Source: Dehalococcoidia bacterium (GTDB lineage Bacteria; Chloroflexota; Dehalococcoidia; Lucifugimonadales; UBA3495). Taken from it: 64,000 bases of DNA. Below the pieces are notes generated by a model. That model was not told the origin of the DNA and did no database searches. It saw only the letters and a list, made by a program, of their open reading frames with translations. The translations under genes were made by a program, and so were the position numbers. Within the stretch, counting starts at the first letter, position 1. Every line of letters starts with the position of its first letter. Where the stretch lies: NCBI GenBank assembly GCA_965262595.1, contig OZ253548.1:1634228-1698227 (forward strand), in the 5' to 3' direction. Positions 2,196 to 11,233 of the stretch are shown piece by piece.

Positions 2196-2517
2196 CAGGT
2201 AAAGTTCCTTTTGTTCGATATTTGCCGGCTGGAAAACTTTGTCGCTTTGCCGGCATCGGGAATAATAGACCTCGCCGATTGAGCCGCCGGGGCTACGGGC
2301 CATAAAGTCGTCAATGCACGAGTAGGCGGGTTCCAGGGACGGGGCGGCGTACAACCGGCAGTACCTACTCTAGCGCAGCTAACAGTCGGGCGCAACGTTG
2401 CCCCTGCCGCTGCTTTGGCAAAAGCCCCGGCAGAAGATGCCCAATTAATGCCCGGGCGGAATTAACGGCCGGCCAGAAGGAAACCCCATGCCTGGTTCTT
2501 TTCCGGCGCGGAAAACG

Positions 2518-3234
2518 TCAACAGCCGTAAGCCCCGGACAAGCTTCCGCCAAACCTTACCGAATCTCCCACGTTTATCCCTAGCGATTCGAACTCCCCGG
2601 CGTTAATTTCCAGCACGTACTGGGCCGGAGCATTGGGAGAGAACCGGGGCAGGTCATTCCGGGATTGGCCGGGGAGGGGAATCGGAGCGTTAAGGGTAAC
2701 ATCGGCCACTTCACAGTTGCCGCCGATCCAGACCATATCCAGAGGAAAGCGCATATCCGGCATCCAAAAGGTTCGGTTGCCTTCCTGCTGGTAGATGAAC
2801 AGCATCCCCGTCCCGGCAGGCAGGAACTCCCGAGCGGACAAGCCTCGGGCCAACTGCTCTCCAGTTATTGCCAACTCCACCTGCCAGGTAGCCGCCCCGA
2901 CGGTTACCAAGGGCAGTTCCGGGTCCGGCGCAGCGGCCGGGGACGGGAGTTCCGTCGCGGTCGGCAATGCCGTAGCGGGGACAAGCTCTGTCGCGGTCGG
3001 CAATGCCGTAGCGGGGACAAGCTCTGTCGGCATTGGCAAGTCCGTTACGGGAGCAACCTCCGTCGGGGCCGGCAAGGTTGGCATTGGCGGAAGGGTAGCG
3101 GCTGACGGCAACTCCGTTGGGGCCGGCAACGGCGCGGACTGAGTCCATCCATCGCCGGTTGGGGTACAAGTCACCGACAGCGCCACCATAAACAGGCACA
3201 GCAAGAGGCCGGGAACGACGCCTAATTGACGCAT
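2518..3234 (-). CDS. Exported DUF192-domain protein with a Pro/Thr-rich repeat linker
   Basis: Start placed at ATG 3234 (MRQLGVVPGLLLCLFMVALSVTC, a signal/lipoprotein-like N-terminus); the longer track ORF would overlap the upstream gene. C-terminal DUF192 pattern: GMLFIY..FWMPDMRFPLDMVWI...YVLEINAG. Confidence 0.7.
   Translation of the reverse strand: MRQLGVVPGLLLCLFMVALSVTCTPTGDGWTQSAPLPAPTELPSAATLPPMPTLPAPTEVAPVTDLPMPTELVPATALPTATELVPATALPTATELPSPAAAPDPELPLVTVGAATWQVELAITGEQLARGLSAREFLPAGTGMLFIYQQEGNRTFWMPDMRFPLDMVWIGGNCEVADVTLNAPIPLPGQSRNDLPRFSPNAPAQYVLEINAGEFESLGINVGDSVRFGGSLSGAYGC
2954..3040. repeat. 36-bp tandem repeat (2 perfect units plus a partial one) inside the DUF192 gene
   Basis: gtcgcggtcggcaatgccgtagcggggacaagctct occurs at 2954-2989 and 2990-3025, followed by a partial third unit. 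It encodes the repeated TELVPATALPTA linker. Confidence 0.9.
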
Positions 3235-3337
3235 TTCTCTAATCCCCGGCAGCCTTGAAAGCCGGGGAGACCTGGCCGATTTCCCCACGGCGTCCCGGTT
3301 CTCGACGGTTTCGTCCGCGCACTGGAAGTTCCTCCGT

Positions 3338-4123
3338 TTACCCGATTTCAGACCGAATAGACTGGATCCGATCCCGCAAAGACCGCAGCAGCACCGCGGG
3401 CGGAGCCGGGGCAACGTGAGTATAGCCGACACCCAATTCGGTCAGGTCTTTAGGTCCCAAAGGCATGGCGGCATGGTTCATCGGGAACTGCATTTTGGCC
3501 TTGCCTATATTCCTGATTTTTCCCGCCAGTTCGGTGAGCTTGGCCCTTAGCTCCGGGCTGGAGGGGTCGCGAATGCCCATATATTCAGAGAAGTCGGTGG
3601 GGCCGATCGATACCAGGTCAATACCATCCAGAGCGGCGATGGCCTCAATGTCGTTAACGCCCTTCTCATCCTCGGTCATCACCGACAGGAGAATCTGCTC
3701 GTTAGACTGGCGGCAATGCTCATCCCAACCGATGGTGCCGAAACGGGCCGCCCGGGTGCCTGCGGCTCCGCCCCGGTGACCCAGGGGCGCATAGCGTACG
3801 GCGTCAACCGCTTTCCTGGCTCCTTCCAAACCGTCCACGTGGGGTACAATGATGCCCTCGGCGCCGGCGTCCAACAAACGCAGGATGAGCTTCTCATCAT
3901 TGTCCGGCACCCGCACAATAGAGGTCACGCCGGCCAGGTCGGCAGCCCGAATCATCTCACCAATCAGCCGCAGGTCGAAGTCGGTATGTTCCATGTCAAT
4001 AAAGGCGGCGTCATACCCGGCCAACCCGATAACCTCCACAATTTGGGGGTCGGCGAAGGTAACGTAGGTGCCCAGGGCCAGCTTACCCTCGCGCATCACC
4101 TTTTTAACCCGATTTTCTCGCAT
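3338..4123 (-). CDS. HpcH/HpaI-family aldolase (2-keto-3-deoxy-acid aldolase type)
   Basis: ATG 4123 is preceded by AAAGGAG. Overall pattern: KLALGTYV...DAAFIDMEHT...VRVP...LDAGAEGIIVPHV...YAPLGHRG. Confidence 0.85.
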   Translation of the reverse strand: MRENRVKKVMREGKLALGTYVTFADPQIVEVIGLAGYDAAFIDMEHTDFDLRLIGEMIRAADLAGVTSIVRVPDNDEKLILRLLDAGAEGIIVPHVDGLEGARKAVDAVRYAPLGHRGGAAGTRAARFGTIGWDEHCRQSNEQILLSVMTEDEKGVNDIEAIAALDGIDLVSIGPTDFSEYMGIRDPSSPELRAKLTELAGKIRNIGKAKMQFPMNHAAMPLGPKDLTELGVGYTHVAPAPPAVLLRSLRDRIQSIRSEIG

Positions 4124-4518: not shown

Positions 4519-5712
4519 ATGTTGAGTGGCGCGTTAGGCGGCGTCAAGGTGCTGGATTTGAGCGAAGACATCGCCGGCTCATTTTGCGCCCGCCTGTTGG
4601 CCGACTACGGAGCGGAAGTGCTGAAGCTGGAACCGCCCGGCGGGGCTGCCCTGCGCCGGATGGGGCCTTTCTTTCAGGACGACCCCCACCCGGAAAAGAG
4701 TCTTTTCTTTCTGGTTTTAAATCTTAACAAGAAAGGCGCTACCCTGAACTTGCAGACCGAAACCGGTCAGGCTCTATTAAAACGGTTGGTGCCCCACGTG
4801 GATGTTATCGTGGAGAGCTACCGGCCCGGCTACTTGGCCTCCCTGGGTTTGGGCCATCAAGATTTGCAGGCCCTCAACCCGGCCCTGACCATGACCTCGG
4901 TGACTCCCTTTGGGCAGGAGGGGCCGTACAGCCAATACCGCGGGGAAGAAATCGTAAATTACGCGATGGGTATGATAATGAGCATCAGCGGGGTACAGGG
5001 CCGGGAACCGCTGAAGCACGGCGGGTTTCAGGCGCAATACGAGGGGGGGTTATTTGCGGCGGCGGCCACTTCCATTGCCCTGTTTGCCCAGGAGTATAGC
5101 GGGGCCGGGGAGCACGTTGACGTTTCTATCACCGAGTGCGTGGCCTCTACGATGATGGCAACCCAGACTATTTACCCATTTATGGGCGGAACGCAGACCC
5201 GCCGGCGGGCCAGCGGCAGTATGTTCGGTAACCCGATGCCCTGCCAGGACGGCTGGATAATCGTCCAGACCGGCGGCGGCGCGTCGTGGGAAGACCTGGC
5301 CGAGTTCTTCCAGTGCCCGGAGATGCTGGAGGAGCGTTTTGCCAACCGGGCGCAGCGGGCCGAAAACGGCGAGGAGCTGGACCGGATTGTAGTTGACTCA
5401 ATCAGGGAGCGCGACAAATGGGAGCTTTTCCCCAAAGCCGCCGAAGCCCGAATGCTCTTCGGCCTGGTGCAGACTCCATCGGAACTGGCCCAGTGCCCTC
5501 AATTGGAATCCCGCGACTTTTATCGGGAGATCGAGCATCCGGTTATCGGGAAGATACGGGTGCCCGCCGAGCTGTTCAAACTGAGCGAAACCCCCTACCA
5601 ACTGACCAACCCGGCCCCCACCCTGGGCCAGCACAACCGGGAAATCTACGTTGACGGCCTGGAGTACGACACGCAGCAGTTTACGCAGTTGCGGCAGTTG
5701 GGGGTGATTTAA
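4519..5712 (+). CDS. Family III CoA-transferase (CaiB/BaiF type)
   Basis: N-terminal VKVLDLSEDIAGSFCARLLADYGAEVLKLEPPGG and the later ESYRPG motif are characteristic of the family. Confidence 0.85.
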   Translation: MLSGALGGVKVLDLSEDIAGSFCARLLADYGAEVLKLEPPGGAALRRMGPFFQDDPHPEKSLFFLVLNLNKKGATLNLQTETGQALLKRLVPHVDVIVESYRPGYLASLGLGHQDLQALNPALTMTSVTPFGQEGPYSQYRGEEIVNYAMGMIMSISGVQGREPLKHGGFQAQYEGGLFAAAATSIALFAQEYSGAGEHVDVSITECVASTMMATQTIYPFMGGTQTRRRASGSMFGNPMPCQDGWIIVQTGGGASWEDLAEFFQCPEMLEERFANRAQRAENGEELDRIVVDSIRERDKWELFPKAAEARMLFGLVQTPSELAQCPQLESRDFYREIEHPVIGKIRVPAELFKLSETPYQLTNPAPTLGQHNREIYVDGLEYDTQQFTQLRQLGVI

Positions 5713-5742
5713 CTTCCGCACTTTTTATATGGAGATGTGTTT

Positions 5743-6237
5743 ATGGAACGCGGGAACGATGCACCGGAAACGTCTGCCGACGCCCAGGACAGTAATTCCA
5801 GAAGGCCCGGTATTGGCGACCGGTTGCGTGAAACTGTCAGAGCCACAGGGGAAGGGATAACTGGCACTGCCGATACCATTACTGGGGTACAGTTCCGTAG
5901 GCAGTTTGAGGATTTTACGGATGCCGTTACTACGACGGTTGTTGGCGTACACCGGGACCAAGAGAAATTACAGGAAAGAACCGACAAGCTGGAATCAGAA
6001 ACTATCGAAGTCCAGCGAACCCAGGGGGAATTGCGGGAGAGGGTGGATAGGCTGGAATCAACCGAAAAATCCCTTGATACCGCTCCACTGGTAGCGAATT
6101 TGCAGGGGCGGCTGGAGATGTTGGAGACGTCAAAAACATCCGGTAAAACCGGCACATCGCCTCTGGTAATTGTCTTTGGTGTAGTAGCAACGCTGGCGTT
6201 GGCGCTGGGCATTATCGCCGTACTGAGAACATTCTGA
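5743..6237 (+). CDS. Hypothetical coiled-coil protein with a C-terminal transmembrane anchor
   Basis: The track ORF starts at GTG 5737. ATG 5743 has GGAGA 7 nt upstream. The middle is heptad-like and charged (EKLQERTDKLESETIEVQRTQGELRERVDRLES). A hydrophobic tail follows (PLVIVFGVVATLALALGIIAVL). The stop overlaps the next start (TGATG). Confidence 0.55.
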   Translation: MERGNDAPETSADAQDSNSRRPGIGDRLRETVRATGEGITGTADTITGVQFRRQFEDFTDAVTTTVVGVHRDQEKLQERTDKLESETIEVQRTQGELRERVDRLESTEKSLDTAPLVANLQGRLEMLETSKTSGKTGTSPLVIVFGVVATLALALGIIAVLRTF

Positions 6238-7277
6238 TGTCCTACGCAGAACTCAAAGCCCTGGCAGCAGCGTATCCGCCACAGCCAAGCGACGCCTTGT
6301 CGCAGTTAGCCGACGAATACCACCGCCGCCACGAGCGGGAGATACTGGACTTGGCCGCCATCGCTGCCGACGTGTCGGTAGATGACATTGCCAACCTGGG
6401 ACTTGAGCCGGAGGCCAACACTCAAATCCTGGAAGCGTTCAGCCTTCAATACCCCAATGTGAGTATTGATTCCATCGTAGGCGCGACGGGTGAGCAGCTC
6501 CGGGGTTGGACTAACGGGGTGAAGGGTAAGTACTTTGAAGTGTTGGTTGCCGAGAAGCTGAACGACGGGGAAAGCATTTGCGACATACAACTCGCGCCCG
6601 GTGAAGTAGCCAGAGTCGGCGAGATTGCCAATCAGCCGGGCTGGGACATACAAATCATTGGCAGAGACGGCGATATTGTCGAGCAGGTGCAGCTAAAGGC
6701 CACTGATTCAATGTCGTATGTCAAAAGCGCCCTGGAGAAATACCCGGACATTCGGATTGTCGCCCCCCAGGAACTTGAGGGCCGGGCTACCGATTTAGAC
6801 GATGTTATTTCCACTGACATAACCAACGAGAGCCTGGAAAATACGGTGGGTGAGCAGTTAAGTGAATTGAGCGAGGACGCGATTACGGACATTTTCCAGC
6901 AAAGCGCCGAAGCCGCGTTTGACGCCATTCCAGGCATATCCGCAGCCCTTATCGGGGTTACTGAGGCAGGGCAGGTGTTAATGGGACGTTCCACAGTTGA
7001 AGAATCGCTGAAACGGGGTGGGGCACGGCTGGGGCGCTCTTCGGTTTATACGGTCATTGGCGCCGGATTAACCGCCGTTGACGCCGGGATTATCTCAGTG
7101 CCGACGGTAATGGCCCTCCGGGTAGCTGAAGGACGGGTAAGGCACCGGGCGGCTATGGGCGACCACTTGGAGGAAAAGACGCAGGAAATTCTGCTCCAAC
7201 TTCAAGTCGCCCAAGACCATAGGGGCAGTCCTAACCCCGTCGCGGAAACACAACCCGCAGCCCAAGCCGTCCATTGA
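6237..7277 (+). CDS. Hypothetical protein with an Mrr-like (PD-(D/E)xK-type) nuclease-fold core and a hydrophobic C-terminal region
   Basis: The segment GKYFEVLVAEKL...QPGWDIQIIGRDGDIVEQVQLKATDS resembles the FE..L / D.GiD / vQvK pattern of Mrr-type restriction endonuclease catalytic domains. C-terminal Gly/Ala-rich hydrophobic stretch: VYTVIGAGLTAVDAGIISVPTVMAL. The functional call is tentative. Confidence 0.5.
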   Translation: MSYAELKALAAAYPPQPSDALSQLADEYHRRHEREILDLAAIAADVSVDDIANLGLEPEANTQILEAFSLQYPNVSIDSIVGATGEQLRGWTNGVKGKYFEVLVAEKLNDGESICDIQLAPGEVARVGEIANQPGWDIQIIGRDGDIVEQVQLKATDSMSYVKSALEKYPDIRIVAPQELEGRATDLDDVISTDITNESLENTVGEQLSELSEDAITDIFQQSAEAAFDAIPGISAALIGVTEAGQVLMGRSTVEESLKRGGARLGRSSVYTVIGAGLTAVDAGIISVPTVMALRVAEGRVRHRAAMGDHLEEKTQEILLQLQVAQDHRGSPNPVAETQPAAQAVH

Positions 7278-7317
7278 CAACAGCCGCTGGAATCATTGAC
7301 AATTCCGTTGCTCCAAA

Positions 7318-8271
7318 TTGGCCTATACCCGGAGCTGCAATACCGTGCAAGCACAGGTAGAAAATCCGTATCGCAAGGGGCCGCCGGACGCAGTCGGGCT
7401 GGCCGCGGCTCAGGCTGCCCAGGACGCCGCCCGCCCGGCGGTAGTAATCCTGTTTGGCTCCCGAGCCCGGGGCGACTGGCGGGAACATTCGGACATAGAC
7501 CTGCTGGTAATTACCGAGGAGGAGGATACCAGGGTCGCCCAGGGCGCCGCCCATTGGGGGATCCAAGTCTGGGAGGAGCAGCGCCACTCCGGTCTCCAAG
7601 TGGACATCATACCCATGACCCGCCGGCAGTTTGAGCGCTGCCGCCGGGCCAAGCAGCACATCGCCGGCCAGGCCGACACTTACGGGGTGGTTATGAGCGG
7701 GGAGGAACTGGAATACCGCAGCGGGTACGAAGACGGGTATCCCGACCACTGGCCGGCAACCATCAACCGCATTGAGAAAGCGGAGATTTGGCTCCGCAAC
7801 CACAACGAGATAGTTGACGCCAATCACTGGCACCAGGCTATGATAGGAATGGCCGCCCAGCAAGCCGTGGAAAACGCTCTGAAAGGCGTTCTGTCCTGTC
7901 TTAACGCGGCTACCGGCTACTCCCACAAGCTGCTGGAGAACTGGCAGGAATTACAGGACTTGGCCCAATTCCGACAACAAGCGCCGGAGGAACTGCTGAC
8001 TGCCGGGCAGGCCCTGTTCGAATACTTGAAATATCCGGACCCGCAGCGGCCGGGAGAATACTTGGACTGGCTCACCGAATACGCGGCCCACTACCGCTGC
8101 TTCCGGGCCTCCTCTGCTATGTCTCAAACCGGCCGACTGGAATTGCAAAGCCTGGTCAATTCTTTTGTGGAATCGCTGCTGGCCCACATCTACCGGCTTA
8201 GCGGCGCCACCCCCCAGGACGTTTACCCGGATGGACTGCGCCCCTGGGAACGCCACCAGCCGGAACCGTAA
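7318..8271 (+). CDS. Fused nucleotidyltransferase (MNT-type) plus HEPN-domain protein
   Basis: NTase motif ILFGSRARGDWREHSDIDLLVI. C-terminal HEPN-like helices AAQQAVENALKGVLSC...GYSHKLLENWQEL and FEYLKYPD (K where RYP is usual). The track start is TTG, so the true start is uncertain. Confidence 0.7.
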   Translation: MAYTRSCNTVQAQVENPYRKGPPDAVGLAAAQAAQDAARPAVVILFGSRARGDWREHSDIDLLVITEEEDTRVAQGAAHWGIQVWEEQRHSGLQVDIIPMTRRQFERCRRAKQHIAGQADTYGVVMSGEELEYRSGYEDGYPDHWPATINRIEKAEIWLRNHNEIVDANHWHQAMIGMAAQQAVENALKGVLSCLNAATGYSHKLLENWQELQDLAQFRQQAPEELLTAGQALFEYLKYPDPQRPGEYLDWLTEYAAHYRCFRASSAMSQTGRLELQSLVNSFVESLLAHIYRLSGATPQDVYPDGLRPWERHQPEP

Positions 8272-8307
8272 ATTCCTGACGCTGTAACGGAAAGGAGTAC
8301 CCCCACC

Positions 8308-9663
8308 ATGCCCAGGCTACCGTTGGAAGGCATCCGCATCCTGGATTCCACCTACGTTTTTGCCCTGCCCTACGCCGGGGGACACCTGGCCGACCTGGGG
8401 GCTGAGGTCATCAAGATTGAAGGGCCGGGCCGCCCGGACGTTACCCGCACCGGGGGTTATTCCGGTTCCTTTCCCGAAAACGAGGCCGGCGAGGGGTGGT
8501 GGAACCGTCCCTCCACCTACAATTTGCTAAACCGGGGCAAGCGTTCGATGGTTCTGGACATGGCCGACGAACGGGGCCGCGACCTGTTCCGCCAATTGGT
8601 AATGGTCAGCGACGTGGTAATGGAGAACTTTACGCCCCGAGTGATGCGGCGGTGGAACCTGGATTATCCCAACCTGCGTAAAATCAAGCCGGATATTATC
8701 CTGATATCCAATACCGGCTATGGCCACGGCGACGGCCCCTATTCCGGCTATCCGGCTCAGGCCACCACTCAGGAGGGCACCCACGGCCACTGCTGGGTTA
8801 CCGGCTACCCGGACGGCGGGCCGTCCAAGGCCGGCGCCTCTTTTGTGGACTTTCTCTCCACCTGGAGCGCGATATTTGCGCTGGGAGCGGCGTTGCGCTA
8901 CCGCAACCGCACCGGCAAGGGTCAGTGGATTGACATCGCCATGTATCAGGCCGGAGTGATGTTCCTGTCCGAATACGTGATGGACGCCATCGCCAACGGG
9001 AGGGAGGGTGGCCGCATCGGGAACCGGCATCCTTACCGCGCTCCCCAGGGCTGCTACCCGGCCCAGGGAAAAGACCAATGGATAACTCTATCCGTAGGGA
9101 GCGACGCCGAGTGGCAATCCCTGTGCGGCTTGATGGGCAAAGAGGAGCTGGCCCATGACTCCCGCTTTGCCGACGTGCTGTCCCGACAGCTTAATCACGA
9201 CGAGATTGACGAAATAATAAAGGAATGGACGGCGGCCTACGACAAGTACGACTTAATGCACCGGCTCCAGGGCGCCGGCATCCCCTCCGGCCCGGTGCTG
9301 ACCGGGCGGGACATCCACTTCGACCCCCATTATCAGAGCCGGGGCTTCCTGGAACGGGTACATTTTCCCAAGGAGCGGGGCATCGGCGACCGCCCGCTGA
9401 TGGGCCGTCCCTACAAGTTTTCCGGCACTCCCCTGGCAATTCGCGGCCCAGGGCCAACATTCGGCCAGGACAACCAGTCTCTGTTGCAAGACTTGCTGGG
9501 GTTGGATGATGCCACCTACCAGGGGCTGGTGCAGGACACCATAATTACCACCACGCCCAATAGCGGCGAGGCAGCGCCCCAAATGGAACCGCGCCAAGCA
9601 GTGGAAATGGGCCTCCTGGCCGATTGGGACCCGGACTACCGGGAGCGGCTGGGGCTGGGTTAG
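8308..9663 (+). CDS. Family III CoA-transferase (CaiB/BaiF type), paralogue of 4519..5712
   Basis: ATG is preceded by AAAGGAG. N-terminal IRILDSTYVFALPYAGGHLADLGAEVIKIEGPG, then ENFTPR. Confidence 0.85.
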   Translation: MPRLPLEGIRILDSTYVFALPYAGGHLADLGAEVIKIEGPGRPDVTRTGGYSGSFPENEAGEGWWNRPSTYNLLNRGKRSMVLDMADERGRDLFRQLVMVSDVVMENFTPRVMRRWNLDYPNLRKIKPDIILISNTGYGHGDGPYSGYPAQATTQEGTHGHCWVTGYPDGGPSKAGASFVDFLSTWSAIFALGAALRYRNRTGKGQWIDIAMYQAGVMFLSEYVMDAIANGREGGRIGNRHPYRAPQGCYPAQGKDQWITLSVGSDAEWQSLCGLMGKEELAHDSRFADVLSRQLNHDEIDEIIKEWTAAYDKYDLMHRLQGAGIPSGPVLTGRDIHFDPHYQSRGFLERVHFPKERGIGDRPLMGRPYKFSGTPLAIRGPGPTFGQDNQSLLQDLLGLDDATYQGLVQDTIITTTPNSGEAAPQMEPRQAVEMGLLADWDPDYRERLGLG

Positions 9664-10108
9664 GCCGGACTACCCTGGAATCGGCATGACTCCCTGATTC
9701 GGGTTGAGTATCGGTCAGCGCCCAGAGCATTCGCACTTGGCACACTGTGCCCCGAATTGGTCCAATTGACTCCTGACCCGCTATTGTCATTCCGGAGAAA
9801 TCCGGAATCCGGGGATTCCTGGGCATAGCTAAACTTTCCTCCGGCAAGACCGGCTGGATTCCGGCCTGCGCCGGAAAGACGATTACCGGAGACTTTGGCC
9901 GCCTAAATGCGTTCGCCCGGGTCAACCCCCAGGGGTCTCTGGATTGTCAAGGGCAACGCGCCCCTGACGAGCCTGTCGGACCATAAACCTGCTCTTCGAC
10001 AAGCTCACAGCGAGCGGGGATACCCCTGAACCGGGATAATCGAAAGACTCTGAGTCAGCGCCGCCCTTTCTTGACACTCCCAAATAGTGGTTATAAGCTG
10101 CGAACTGA

Positions 10109-10183
10109 GGGCTTGTAGCTCAGTGGTAGAGCAACCGGCTCATAACCGGTAGGTCGCTGGTTCGAACCCAGCCGGGCCCACCA
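10109..10183 (+). tRNA. tRNA with CAT anticodon (elongator Met, or Ile2 if lysidine-modified), CCA encoded
   Basis: Hand-folded cloverleaf. Acceptor GGGCTTG/CGGGCCC (two G-U pairs), D stem GCTC/GAGC, anticodon stem ACCGG/CCGGT with loop CTCATAA. Variable loop AGGTC, T arm GCTGG-TTCGAAC-CCAGC, discriminator A, CCA. It lacks the three G-C pairs in the anticodon stem that mark an initiator. Confidence 0.85.
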
Positions 10184-10258
10184 AACGGGACAAAATCAAG
10201 AACCACTACCTTTAGGTTCCGGTTAGCGCTGTAGAACGAAACTTTCCTCGCATCGTCT

Positions 10259-10800
10259 CCGACCAGCGCGGGTGATGATACCTTGGCCTACCGGGAATGG
10301 ACGGTTACCCGAAGGCGAACCGGAAGCTGGAGCAGGAGGACGGTTCAGCATGGCAACTGAAGAAGGGTTTGTTTGCAAGTCGTGCATCGACGCTGTGGTG
10401 GCATCCGCAAAGGTAGCGGGGGAGGACTACGAAAACGCCGATTAGGTACATATGCTCGCCCTCAAGTTCGGGGCCAGAATCTCCGACCACTTCTGTGAGG
10501 ATGATAATGAGAAAGTGGATTGCAATTGCGGTTGCCGGGTTGGAATCTTGCCGTGGGGGGAGTCATTCGGGACGGTGACGGCGAAAGGGGATGTTTGCGA
10601 CTCGTGCCTCGAGGCGGTGTACGAAGCCCCGCTGTCGGTGGGCGAGCAGCACGATGACCTCTTGTCCACATATATGCTGGCCCGCACGAGTGGAGGGAAT
10701 ATCTTCGACCACGAGTGCGCGGCGGAGGATGGGGGAGTTGGATTGCCATTGCGGCTGCCAACGCAACTAGCGAACTGACCAGCTCGGGTTGACTGTGAGG
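10259..10800 (+). repeat. About 222-bp tandem repeat (about 2.4 diverged units) encoding a Cys-rich module
   Basis: Units start near 10259, 10484 and 10706. Conserved blocks include gtttgcaagtcgtgcatcgacgctgtggt versus gtttgcgactcgtgcctcgaggcggtgta, and acatatgctcgcc...ccgaccac versus acatatatgctggcc...tcgaccac. Confidence 0.55.
10452..10778 (+). CDS. Hypothetical Cys-rich repeat protein (possibly a decaying gene)
   Basis: ATG ORF covering repeat unit 2 and part of unit 3 (SDHFCEDDNEKVDCNCGC...GDVCDSCLEAV). Unit 1 carries stops and unit 3 reads VDCHCGC only in another frame. Confidence 0.3.
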   Translation: MLALKFGARISDHFCEDDNEKVDCNCGCRVGILPWGESFGTVTAKGDVCDSCLEAVYEAPLSVGEQHDDLLSTYMLARTSGGNIFDHECAAEDGGVGLPLRLPTQLAN

Positions 10801-10893
10801 TGATTGTCCGGTTGCCGCAGTTCATACGTGGGGGATTTCCCTCCTGTCGGCAATTTCTCTATCCGCGCCGCCGTGGCAGCGCCGGTTCTTTTT

Positions 10894-11223
10894 TCACTCC
10901 TCGATCCACAAGTTGTTTTGAAGAGCGGAATCCTTCACCTGCCAGGCAAGTCCGTAACGGACCGGAACGTCCGAAGATTTAAGCGTAACGGCAATCGTGT
11001 AGGTCTGCCCCACAGCTAACCCGCCGGGCACATAGATGTGCTTGATGTTGTTGCCCGGGTCGTCGTCGTTCAACGCGCCGGTCTGATCAACATCGAACCT
11101 GGTCGGGGTAACAAGCCGGATTGTCTTAAGTGTACGGCTCGACGCGGCGAGTGCAGGAGTCCAGGTTATATGTTCGTAGGCTCTTACTTCACTGAGGGTC
11201 AGGCGCCGCGTCCCGGTATCCAA
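10894..11223 (-). CDS. Hypothetical 109-aa protein downstream of the histidine kinase
   Basis: ORF with a TTG start 10 nt after the kinase stop. No recognisable motif. Confidence 0.35.
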   Translation of the reverse strand: MDTGTRRLTLSEVRAYEHITWTPALAASSRTLKTIRLVTPTRFDVDQTGALNDDDPGNNIKHIYVPGGLAVGQTYTIAVTLKSSDVPVRYGLAWQVKDSALQNNLWIEE

Positions 11224-11233
11224 CGATAGGAGT

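Follow-up and report, generated by a model that had tools for sequence, protein, structure and literature searches.

Within a 64,000-nucleotide (nt) stretch of the genome of a Dehalococcoidia bacterium (contig OZ253548.1, positions 1,634,228 to 1,698,227 of the forward strand; the window in what follows), three forward-strand genes, here called A, B and C, lie between two genes for family III CoA-transferases, T1 and T2. Judged by comparison with related sequences, A and B are a widespread, fast-evolving and dispensable pair, in which the core of B is related to a defence candidate and the architecture and the partner are the pair's own. We see about an even chance that A-B constitutes a membrane-associated nuclease defence module, analogous and not homologous to the membrane-bound nuclease SNIPE.

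The pair recurs well beyond this locus. From species-representative genomes we recovered 62 loci, almost all in metagenome-assembled genomes of Dehalococcoidia/Chloroflexota (SAR202-type), the non-Chloroflexota among them being two Nitrospira, one genome labelled 'Binatia', one of the Proteobacteria and one of the Hebobacteria. In ~57 of the 59 usable loci B is preceded by an A-like gene that stops within a few nt of the B start, and the two often overlap by 1 or 4 nt; very distant members, from other and partly AT-rich organisms (loci L066, L069 and L071), are paired in the same way. When neighbouring open reading frames (ORFs) were clustered all against all, A and B were the only recurrent families, the next commonest occurring in 7 loci. 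A preliminary description of this DNA had raised co-conservation of the first two genes, and it holds both in these loci and in the distant members. This distribution indicates that the conserved unit is the two genes A-B, not three. In the window, A (5743..6237, +) encodes 164 residues and B (6237..7277, +) encodes 346; the ATG of B shares 1 nt with the stop codon of A (TGATG), an overlap already seen in the preliminary description, and the operon is probably translationally coupled.

The site occupied by the pair is itself variable. Through T1 orthologues we found six syntenic genomes with the common order HpcH aldolase, T1, slot, T2; the orthologues, 78-97% identical, adjoin HpcH in L003, L006 and L072-L075. 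In the closest of these relatives, L072, whose flanks are 97-99% identical to the window (T1 97%, T2 99%), the slot is empty of A-B and the two CoA-transferase genes are adjacent, 138 nt apart, which bears out the earlier view that the genes between them are an insert. The slot holds a 96-residue ORF followed by C (87% identical to that of the window) in L073 (T1 90%); C (61%), a 71-residue copy of the T2 5' end and a 291-residue protein of unknown type in L074 (T1 83%); an NYN-domain protein in L075 (T1 78%); A, B, a 54-residue copy of the T2 5' end and a solute-binding protein in L003 (T1 85%); and A, B and C in L006 (T1 85%). Upstream of C in L073 (8783-8887) there is a remnant of the last ~25 codons of B with an in-frame stop (MGDHLDDKTAEVLREEPVV*SHRGKP), and it resembles the L004-type B allele more than the window B. 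On this evidence A-B was formerly present in L073 and was then deleted. The 96-residue ORF of the same slot (L073, 8427-8717) has a terminal transmembrane segment ending ...ETFF, reminiscent of the A tail. Since the protein collection searched holds no B homologue of 77-100% identity, L072 probably lacks A-B altogether, elsewhere in its genome as well as in the slot. The empty slot in L072, the remnant in L073 and the other cargo in L074 and L075 together mark A-B, on comparative grounds, as accessory, dispensable cargo. An essential housekeeping role of the pair was considered and rejected in view of the empty L072 slot and the L073 B pseudogene remnant.

The partial copies of T2 suggest how the slot is filled. 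In L074 the 71-residue ORF (9284-9499) is 94% identical to T2 residues 1-64 and lies just upstream of the 291-residue protein, and in L003 the 54-residue ORF (7030-7194) is 77% identical to T2 residues 1-31 and lies just upstream of the solute-binding protein; these duplicated 5' ends look like the footprint of repeated insertion at the T2 border. Searches at the insert borders found neither att-like repeats nor conserved junctions, the spacers being unalignable between relatives and containing only short chance repeats, and no transposase or integrase flanks the insert in the window. The slot is, as read from these comparisons, an integration and deletion hotspot with two independent accessory cassettes, A-B and C. 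Across A-B the G+C content is slightly lower than in the flanks (0.54-0.57 vs ~0.60). Among the window, L003 and L006, B proteins are 56-61% identical and A proteins ~44%, the flanking genes being 83-88% identical; on these figures both genes of the pair have diverged far more quickly than the genes around them. Furthermore, the window B is closest (77%) to a copy in a different context, that of L004, between TauD and PTE genes, and in L071 a distant A-B (7375-8975), encoded on the opposite strand, separates ispF (YgbB) from ispD; these two genes are usually adjacent or fused, which suggests an insertion into a housekeeping gene pair. The L004 context and the L071 placement point to some mobility of A-B.

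Gene C follows a distribution of its own. It occupies the slot without intact A-B in L073 and L074, and A-B is found without C in L003 and ~55 other loci. The preliminary description had grouped the three genes, and one could picture a three-component system of membrane scaffold (A), nuclease (B) and nucleotidyltransferase (NTase)-HEPN regulator or effector (C): the genes share a strand, B is separated from C by only 67 nt (counted to the C start at 7345), all three occur together in the window and in L006, and HEPN and NTase domains are frequent in defence. We rejected this grouping, which we judge very improbable, as it fails co-conservation. C is found apart from A-B as described, essentially all other A-B loci lack C, NTP_transf_2/HEPN is not among the recurrent neighbours, and L073, which has lost A-B, retains a C that is 87% identical to that of the window. 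Between B and C there is, moreover, a promoter-like site, TTGACA-18-GACAAT (7274..7303, +; 10/12 matches in a consensus scan, a pattern match only), which would fit separate transcription of C. C appears from its occurrence to be a separate cassette, gained and lost independently of A-B.

The core of B (residues 81-185; 6477..6791, +) is predicted to be a restriction-endonuclease-like domain. In an AlphaFold2 (AF2) model built with a 24-sequence alignment, residues 1-185 of B are confident, the core with a predicted local distance difference test (pLDDT) score of 80-94, and residues 186-307 fall below 50. The core has the topology α-β-β-β-α-β (helix 85-109, strands 124-127, 138-141 and 147-153, helix 159-168, strand 173-175), and a model of the domain alone has the identical topology. 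Across 24 close family members the invariant columns are K96, G97, Y99, F100 and E101, then W136 and D137, and Q152 and K154; the core motifs quoted in the preliminary description are found in B and fall within these columns. The putative catalytic residues E101 (6537-6539), D137 (6645-6647), Q152 (6690-6692) and K154 (6696-6698) are placed as expected of the superfamily: helix 1 carries E101, D137 stands where strand 2 starts, and strand 3 contains Q152-L-K154. Indeed, E, D and K are invariant in the 24 close and 37 distant members, Q is invariant in the close and at least 90% conserved in the distant ones, and all four remain invariant when two plasmid homologues are included in the alignment.

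Structural comparison points in the same direction. Searched alone against the PDB with Foldseek, the B core finds AvaII as its best match (E=0.28, TM-score 0.39), followed by YaeQ, the DrdV nuclease domain and the influenza PA endonuclease; none of these matches is significant, and all four named neighbours belong to the PD-(D/E)xK superfamily. The full-length model, in which the disordered half dominated, returned nothing below E=0.17 from the PDB, and the domain-only model improved the ranking, not the significance. Against BFVD the best matches are annotated 'Nuclease' (E=7e-3), DUF2726 (1.7e-2) and VRR-NUC (3e-2); the named neighbours, marginal at E=0.007-0.5, are almost all PD-(D/E)xK proteins and further include Holliday-junction resolvases, RecU-like and CoiA-like proteins and restriction endonucleases. 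We consider it likely, from model and alignment, that the B core adopts the PD-(D/E)xK fold, and somewhat probable, from the conservation of its residues, that it retains catalysis.

The D...Q-x-K arrangement is the PD-(D/E)xK variant of the Mrr and MspJI families, and the preliminary description had likened the core to Mrr-type nucleases. The nuclease topology and the E...D...QxK residues stand. B shares with Mrr_cat (PF04471) the G-x-x-F-E in helix 1, the G-x-D of strand 2, the Q-x-K of strand 3 and the α-β-β-β-α-β order; the likeness to Mrr is one of motifs only, as neither B nor 37 relatives match the Mrr_cat hidden Markov model at E<=5. Moreover, unlike Mrr proteins, B is without the Mrr-type N-terminal DNA-binding domain and instead combines a hydrophobic module with an obligate partner of the coiled-coil type.

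B belongs to a large family. We found more than 255 full-length homologues (90% clustering), and a profile of 24 B sequences retrieves 1009 clusters (50% identity) at E<=1e-3, of which 631 reach E<=1e-10 and 219 reach E<=1e-30; almost all of the proteins are 310-350 residues long. Sequence and profile searches with B in Pfam (E<=1), NCBIfam, PHROG and the PDB gave no match. The core is preceded by an N-terminal helical domain without recognisable family (residues 1-80; 6237..6476, +; pLDDT 61-90), with conserved LGLEPEANPQ and YPNV blocks, and is followed by an acidic helical linker and a conserved Gly/Ala-rich hydrophobic module (residues 226-300; 6912..7136, +; delimited by hydropathy and alignment). 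The module comprises, in order, a helix with the invariant E243 (..IGVTEG..), a polar loop (G250, R251) and a Gly/Ala-rich hydrophobic stretch of ~30 residues. Its hydropathy reaches 1.65 at residues 270-288, borderline for a transmembrane segment, and 1.4-2.1 in relatives; distant members retain the same architecture and are there clearly more hydrophobic. The Gly/Ala-rich segment of the preliminary description is thus present, although its membrane-spanning character is borderline.

PADLOC is the only library that recognises B. Both of its PDC-M72B models match (E=4.9e-17, 60.6 bits, and 8e-16) over B residues 81-225, corresponding to profile positions 31-164 of 193, and the match is found in 24 of the 24 family members tested. 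PDC systems are 145 phage defence candidates chosen by homologues embedded in BREX, DISARM and type I restriction-modification (RM) loci (10.1101/2024.01.29.577857), PDC-M72 being a two-gene cassette, FAM_01979>>FAM_01904, that was found 31 times and is a candidate only (Payne et al., 10.1101/2024.01.29.577857). A literature search on 'PDC-M72' found no mention besides the cassette list in the supplement of that study (10.1101/2024.01.29.577857).

Bona fide PDC-M72B proteins occur on plasmids. A tblastn search of 72,556 plasmids with B and two distant members returned only two Roseobacter plasmids, carrying a short PDC-M72B-type or a fused version. On Sulfitobacter pTHAF37_g a 243-residue PDC-M72B protein (E=2e-33) is encoded downstream of a 219-residue Gly-zipper-like membrane protein matching PDC-M09A, and this pair adjoins a recombinase and a DUF262 protein matching HEC-05 (E=4e-218); on a Yoonia plasmid an N-terminal Gly-rich hydrophobic module is fused to the M72B-like core in a 509-residue protein. 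B and the plasmid proteins have G, E, D, Q-x-K and A residues in common, and both are tied to a Gly-rich hydrophobic module. The module thus appears in three arrangements relative to the core, as an upstream gene (Sulfitobacter), an N-terminal fusion (Yoonia) and a C-terminal fusion (the B family), which is good evidence, at the level of gene organisation, that the two parts work together. B differs from PDC-M72B in its additional 80-residue N-terminal domain and its longer C-terminal module, and its partner A, with a motif, a coiled coil and in part a transmembrane segment, matches neither PDC-M72A nor PDC-M09A, whereas the plasmid partner is PDC-M09A-like. Because A has no PDC-M72A match, A-B is not the PDC-M72 cassette.

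Gene A opens with a GGAG 7 nt upstream of its ATG at 5743, and public gene calls give the same 164 residues. Behind an acidic N-terminus, the protein has a family-defining motif at residues 47-73 (5881..5961, +), TGVQFRRQFEDFTDAVTTTVVGVHRDQ; in an alignment of 29 members no other block is well conserved, and within this one G68 is invariant and G48, F58 and H70 reach at least 90%. Its consensus is TG..F(R)..FE.FT.AVT..VVG(V/L)H(R)D, and a diverged form, vLvGmH(R/K)D, is still recognisable in the distant partners of L066, L069 and L071. The motif is followed by a putative coiled-coil segment of variable length (5962..6162, +), for which the window A gives weak coiled-coil-type matches only (DUF3450, Filament; JetC/LmuB arms). 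Between 23 and 245 residues follow the motif among relatives, and in L006 the A gene contains, at 5275-5844, 6.8 tandem copies of an 84-nt unit, that is 28 residues or four heptads, with 83% matches, which lengthens the protein to 308 residues.

At its C-terminus the window A carries a predicted transmembrane anchor (residues 141-162; 6163..6228, +; Kyte-Doolittle 19-residue mean 2.86), with only 2 residues after it. The coiled coil with a C-terminal anchor proposed in the preliminary description is therefore upheld for this protein, and A is, by its predicted features, a tail-anchored coiled-coil protein in this genome; the anchor is not universal in the family. Among 54 motif-bearing relatives, 34 have a C-terminal transmembrane segment, 5 a Trp-rich tail (PWWQFWHWRWI) and 15 neither. 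The idea that the A anchor compensates for weak hydrophobicity of B was rejected, as the type of A shows no correlation with B hydropathy: the median hydropathy maximum of the B C-terminal region is 1.67, 1.69 and 1.78 with transmembrane, Trp-rich and unanchored A, respectively. Separately, in L070, where the A partner has only 88 residues and is without a membrane anchor, a third gene (2326-3327) overlaps the end of B and encodes 333 residues, which begin with a coiled coil and contain Cys-rich repeats resembling zinc ribbons (weak Zn_ribbon_recom match, E=1e-3).

These features can be assembled into a working scheme for A-B. No signal peptide is found in A or B and A is tail-anchored, from which the bulk of both proteins would be cytoplasmic, at the inner membrane. 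A would multimerise through its coiled coil, forming a stalk of variable length that is tail-anchored in this genome, and would bind B through its conserved motif. B, on the cytoplasmic side, may also be held at the inner membrane face by its Gly/Ala-rich C-terminal hairpin, and its E...D...QxK centre would cleave nucleic acid that appears there, incoming foreign DNA being the most plausible substrate. Such direct defence would follow the logic of SNIPE with unrelated domains.

SNIPE (PD-λ-1), a GIY-YIG nuclease bound to the membrane, cuts phage DNA in the course of injection, and its release from the membrane is toxic (PMC13190303). Its homologues have one transmembrane segment (59%), two (7%) or other membrane-targeting parts (34%), and the adaptor varies in length while the nuclease is conserved (PMC13190303). 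The likeness of A-B to SNIPE is one of logic only, with a nuclease brought to the inner membrane by an elongated helical element, as proposed for A-B, and a membrane-targeting part that varies in length and type, as in A. In build the two differ: SNIPE is a single polypeptide with an N-terminal transmembrane segment, DUF4041 and a GIY-YIG domain, whereas A-B comprises two proteins with a PD-(D/E)xK-type core and the tail anchor on the partner. Neither A nor B gave a hit to DUF4041, GIY-YIG or PD-Lambda-1 in Pfam and PADLOC.

Several observations weigh against a membrane-bound defence nuclease. The structural matches of the B core are marginal (best E=7e-3 in BFVD and 0.28 in the PDB, TM-scores <=0.48), and Pfam nuclease families match neither B nor 37 diverse relatives even at E<=5. 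In the B module, hydropathy is borderline for a membrane-spanning segment, some of the conserved residues are charged and the model has pLDDT <50; about one quarter of A proteins have no membrane anchor. PDC-M72A is matched neither by the window A nor by 28 other A proteins, which give only coiled-coil-type hits (JetC, LmuB, PtuA); PDC-M72 is itself a candidate. Around the 57 Dehalococcoidia loci the neighbours are mostly metabolic, with few of defence or mobile type (AAA_21 three times, PIN three times, rve three times, D12 methylase twice, and AAA_15). No B relatives were found in 50,697 phage genomes (tblastn) or in IMG/VR (pattern scan), a result that is neutral on defence.

The hydrophobic module bears on a different mode of action, in which the nuclease fold of B would sense foreign or damaged DNA and the B hairpins, organised by A, would oligomerise, permeabilise the membrane and kill or arrest the cell, as in abortive infection. 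The repeated joining of the core to Gly-rich hydrophobic modules, in differing gene and fusion arrangements, would fit this, as would the conserved architecture of the module, whose invariant Glu and Gly/Arg suit regulated membrane insertion better than a passive anchor, and the fact that most A members already provide an anchor. We nevertheless hold abortive infection to be unlikely: E...D...QxK is essentially invariant in more than 60 diverse members (Q at least 90% in the distant ones), which argues for catalysis and not for a degenerate sensor, the hydrophobicity of B is only borderline, and PADLOC and Pfam reveal no homology to known pore-forming effectors.

The genomic context bears on whether the role is defensive at all. 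The preliminary description had suggested defence, and this remains plausible from the PDC-M72B relationship and from what lies beside distant relatives, although the neighbours in Dehalococcoidia speak less for it. The distant A-B of L069 adjoins SspH (E=6e-172) and an HNH protein, another contig has a distant A-B amid TIR_2, HipA and HTH-peptidase M78 genes, and HEC-05 stands next to the Sulfitobacter pair; in the slot itself, relatives carry NYN nuclease and NTase-HEPN genes. A SAR202-type-enriched accessory role outside defence, such as membrane-associated DNA or RNA processing or an envelope-linked complex for DNA uptake, resolution/segregation or stress, would account for several features: the family is abundant in Dehalococcoidia, most genomes having one copy, and its neighbours there are mostly metabolic; B is fairly conserved, with ~50% identity across the class and 33 invariant residues; the window insert is flanked by no transposase, integrase or att-like repeats; and CoiA-like competence and RecU-like resolvase folds are among the BFVD neighbours. 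It accords poorly with presence and absence varying between genomes whose flanks are 97-99% identical, with the decayed remnant in one lineage, with the evolution of A and B being much faster than that of the flanking genes, with nuclease- or toxin-like cargo elsewhere in the slot, with the SspH, HEC-05, TIR and HipA genes around distant relatives, and with the homology of the B core to a family embedded in BREX, DISARM and RM systems. We regard such a role as quite unlikely, and a membrane-associated nuclease defence module stays our preferred reading of A-B, at the even chance given above.

Gene C (7345..8271, +), a fusion of NTase and HEPN domains in 308 residues, is of a known architecture and, as annotated, ordinary in itself. 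Its ORF opens at TTG 7318, and the GTG start at 7345 is common to the orthologues of L073 (87%), L074 (61%) and L006 (56%) and agrees with a public gene call of 308 residues. Both domains named in the preliminary description score above the Pfam gathering thresholds, NTP_transf_2 clearly (E=2e-12, 47.6 bits, cut-off 21) and HEPN barely (E=6e-5, 23.6 bits, cut-off 22), with Polbeta at 3e-9, and the JGI annotation reads 'nucleotidyltransferase/HEPN domain-containing protein'. The NTase signature G-S-x(n)-D-x-D is present as FGSRARGDWREHSDIDLLV. C resembles MntA/HepT (type VII toxin-antitoxin) in having both domains. It differs in fusing them in one protein in place of two genes, in staying below the NCBIfam MntA cut-off (E=7e-8, 32.4 bits against 60; the minimal nucleotidyltransferase 1wot in the PDB is a weak match) and in having no R-x4-6-H motif in its HEPN part. 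This motif is absent from the HEPN region of C (152-227), and none is conserved in the HEPN part of four orthologues, where H203 and Y259-R260 are invariant, so that RNase activity of C is not to be assumed. By its domains, C is a self-contained MNT-type NTase-HEPN protein related to toxin-antitoxin and defence modules.

Five forward-strand ORFs cover 4519-9663 of the window, three of them between T1 and T2, and all five are as first described. The two border genes, T1 (4519..5712, +) and T2 (8308..9663, +), match PF02515 over the full profile (E=9e-89, 298.6 bits, and E=7e-102, 341.7 bits). Since they are only ~26% identical, they are taken as old paralogues, not a recent duplication. Neither reaches an NCBIfam equivalog cut-off that would assign a substrate specificity. 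In L072 a 373-residue gene (5626-6747) that the window lacks lies between HpcH and T1, with a weak PADLOC match to DpdB (E=8e-10) and a Pfam match to DndB (E=2e-4, below cut-off); this gap may be another variable site of the same neighbourhood.

Further along the window, a tRNA-Met (CAT) gene (10109-10183, +; Rfam 73 bits; ARAGORN) lies ~450 nt downstream of T2 in an ORF-poor stretch (9664-11233), with ~1.5 kb free of long ORFs, and the GC skew has a maximum at 10251-10750. Two adjacent small ORFs of 57 residues (10272-10445, +) and 108 residues (10452-10778, +) have in common a Cys-containing block, G(F/D)VC(K/D)SC(I/L)(D/E)AV, and are 35% identical over 46 residues (pairwise E=6e-6); duplication of a small protein may explain them, or they may be paired by chance. 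On the other side of the slot, a DUF192-family protein (2518-3432, -), assigned by orthology with L003, contains Pro/Thr/Ala-rich tandem repeats (...LPTATELVPATALPTATELVPATA...), and this repeat region is far less conserved than the remainder (55% identity vs ~80-87% for the neighbours).

Members of the A-B family are common among uncultured SAR202-type Chloroflexi of marine and sponge-associated origin, with scattered occurrences in other phyla. In a bolder form of the proposal, which we find rather doubtful, A-B would be the founding member of a large, so far undescribed family (at least 1000 clusters at 50% identity) of immune systems with two components, in which a PD-(D/E)xK nuclease is tethered to the membrane. 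Such systems would tell self from non-self by location, cleaving DNA on its way across the inner membrane, with the variable-length coiled-coil partner as adaptor or ruler, and would be convergent with SNIPE though assembled from unrelated parts. Were A-B a membrane-localised nuclease defence, it would be a second, independently evolved case of spatial self/non-self discrimination, so far shown only for SNIPE, and more than 1000 sequence clusters for which Pfam and NCBIfam have no model would gain a function. If A-B is not defensive, it would be an ordinary lineage-enriched pair of hypothetical proteins. To our knowledge, the phage interactions of uncultured SAR202-type Dehalococcoidia are almost unknown, and A-B, if the proposal is right, would join the small number of defence modules recognised in this group. 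The slot between T1 and T2, which in close relatives is empty, holds a decayed remnant or carries other cargo, offers a natural experiment on the gain and loss of accessory genes in these bacteria.

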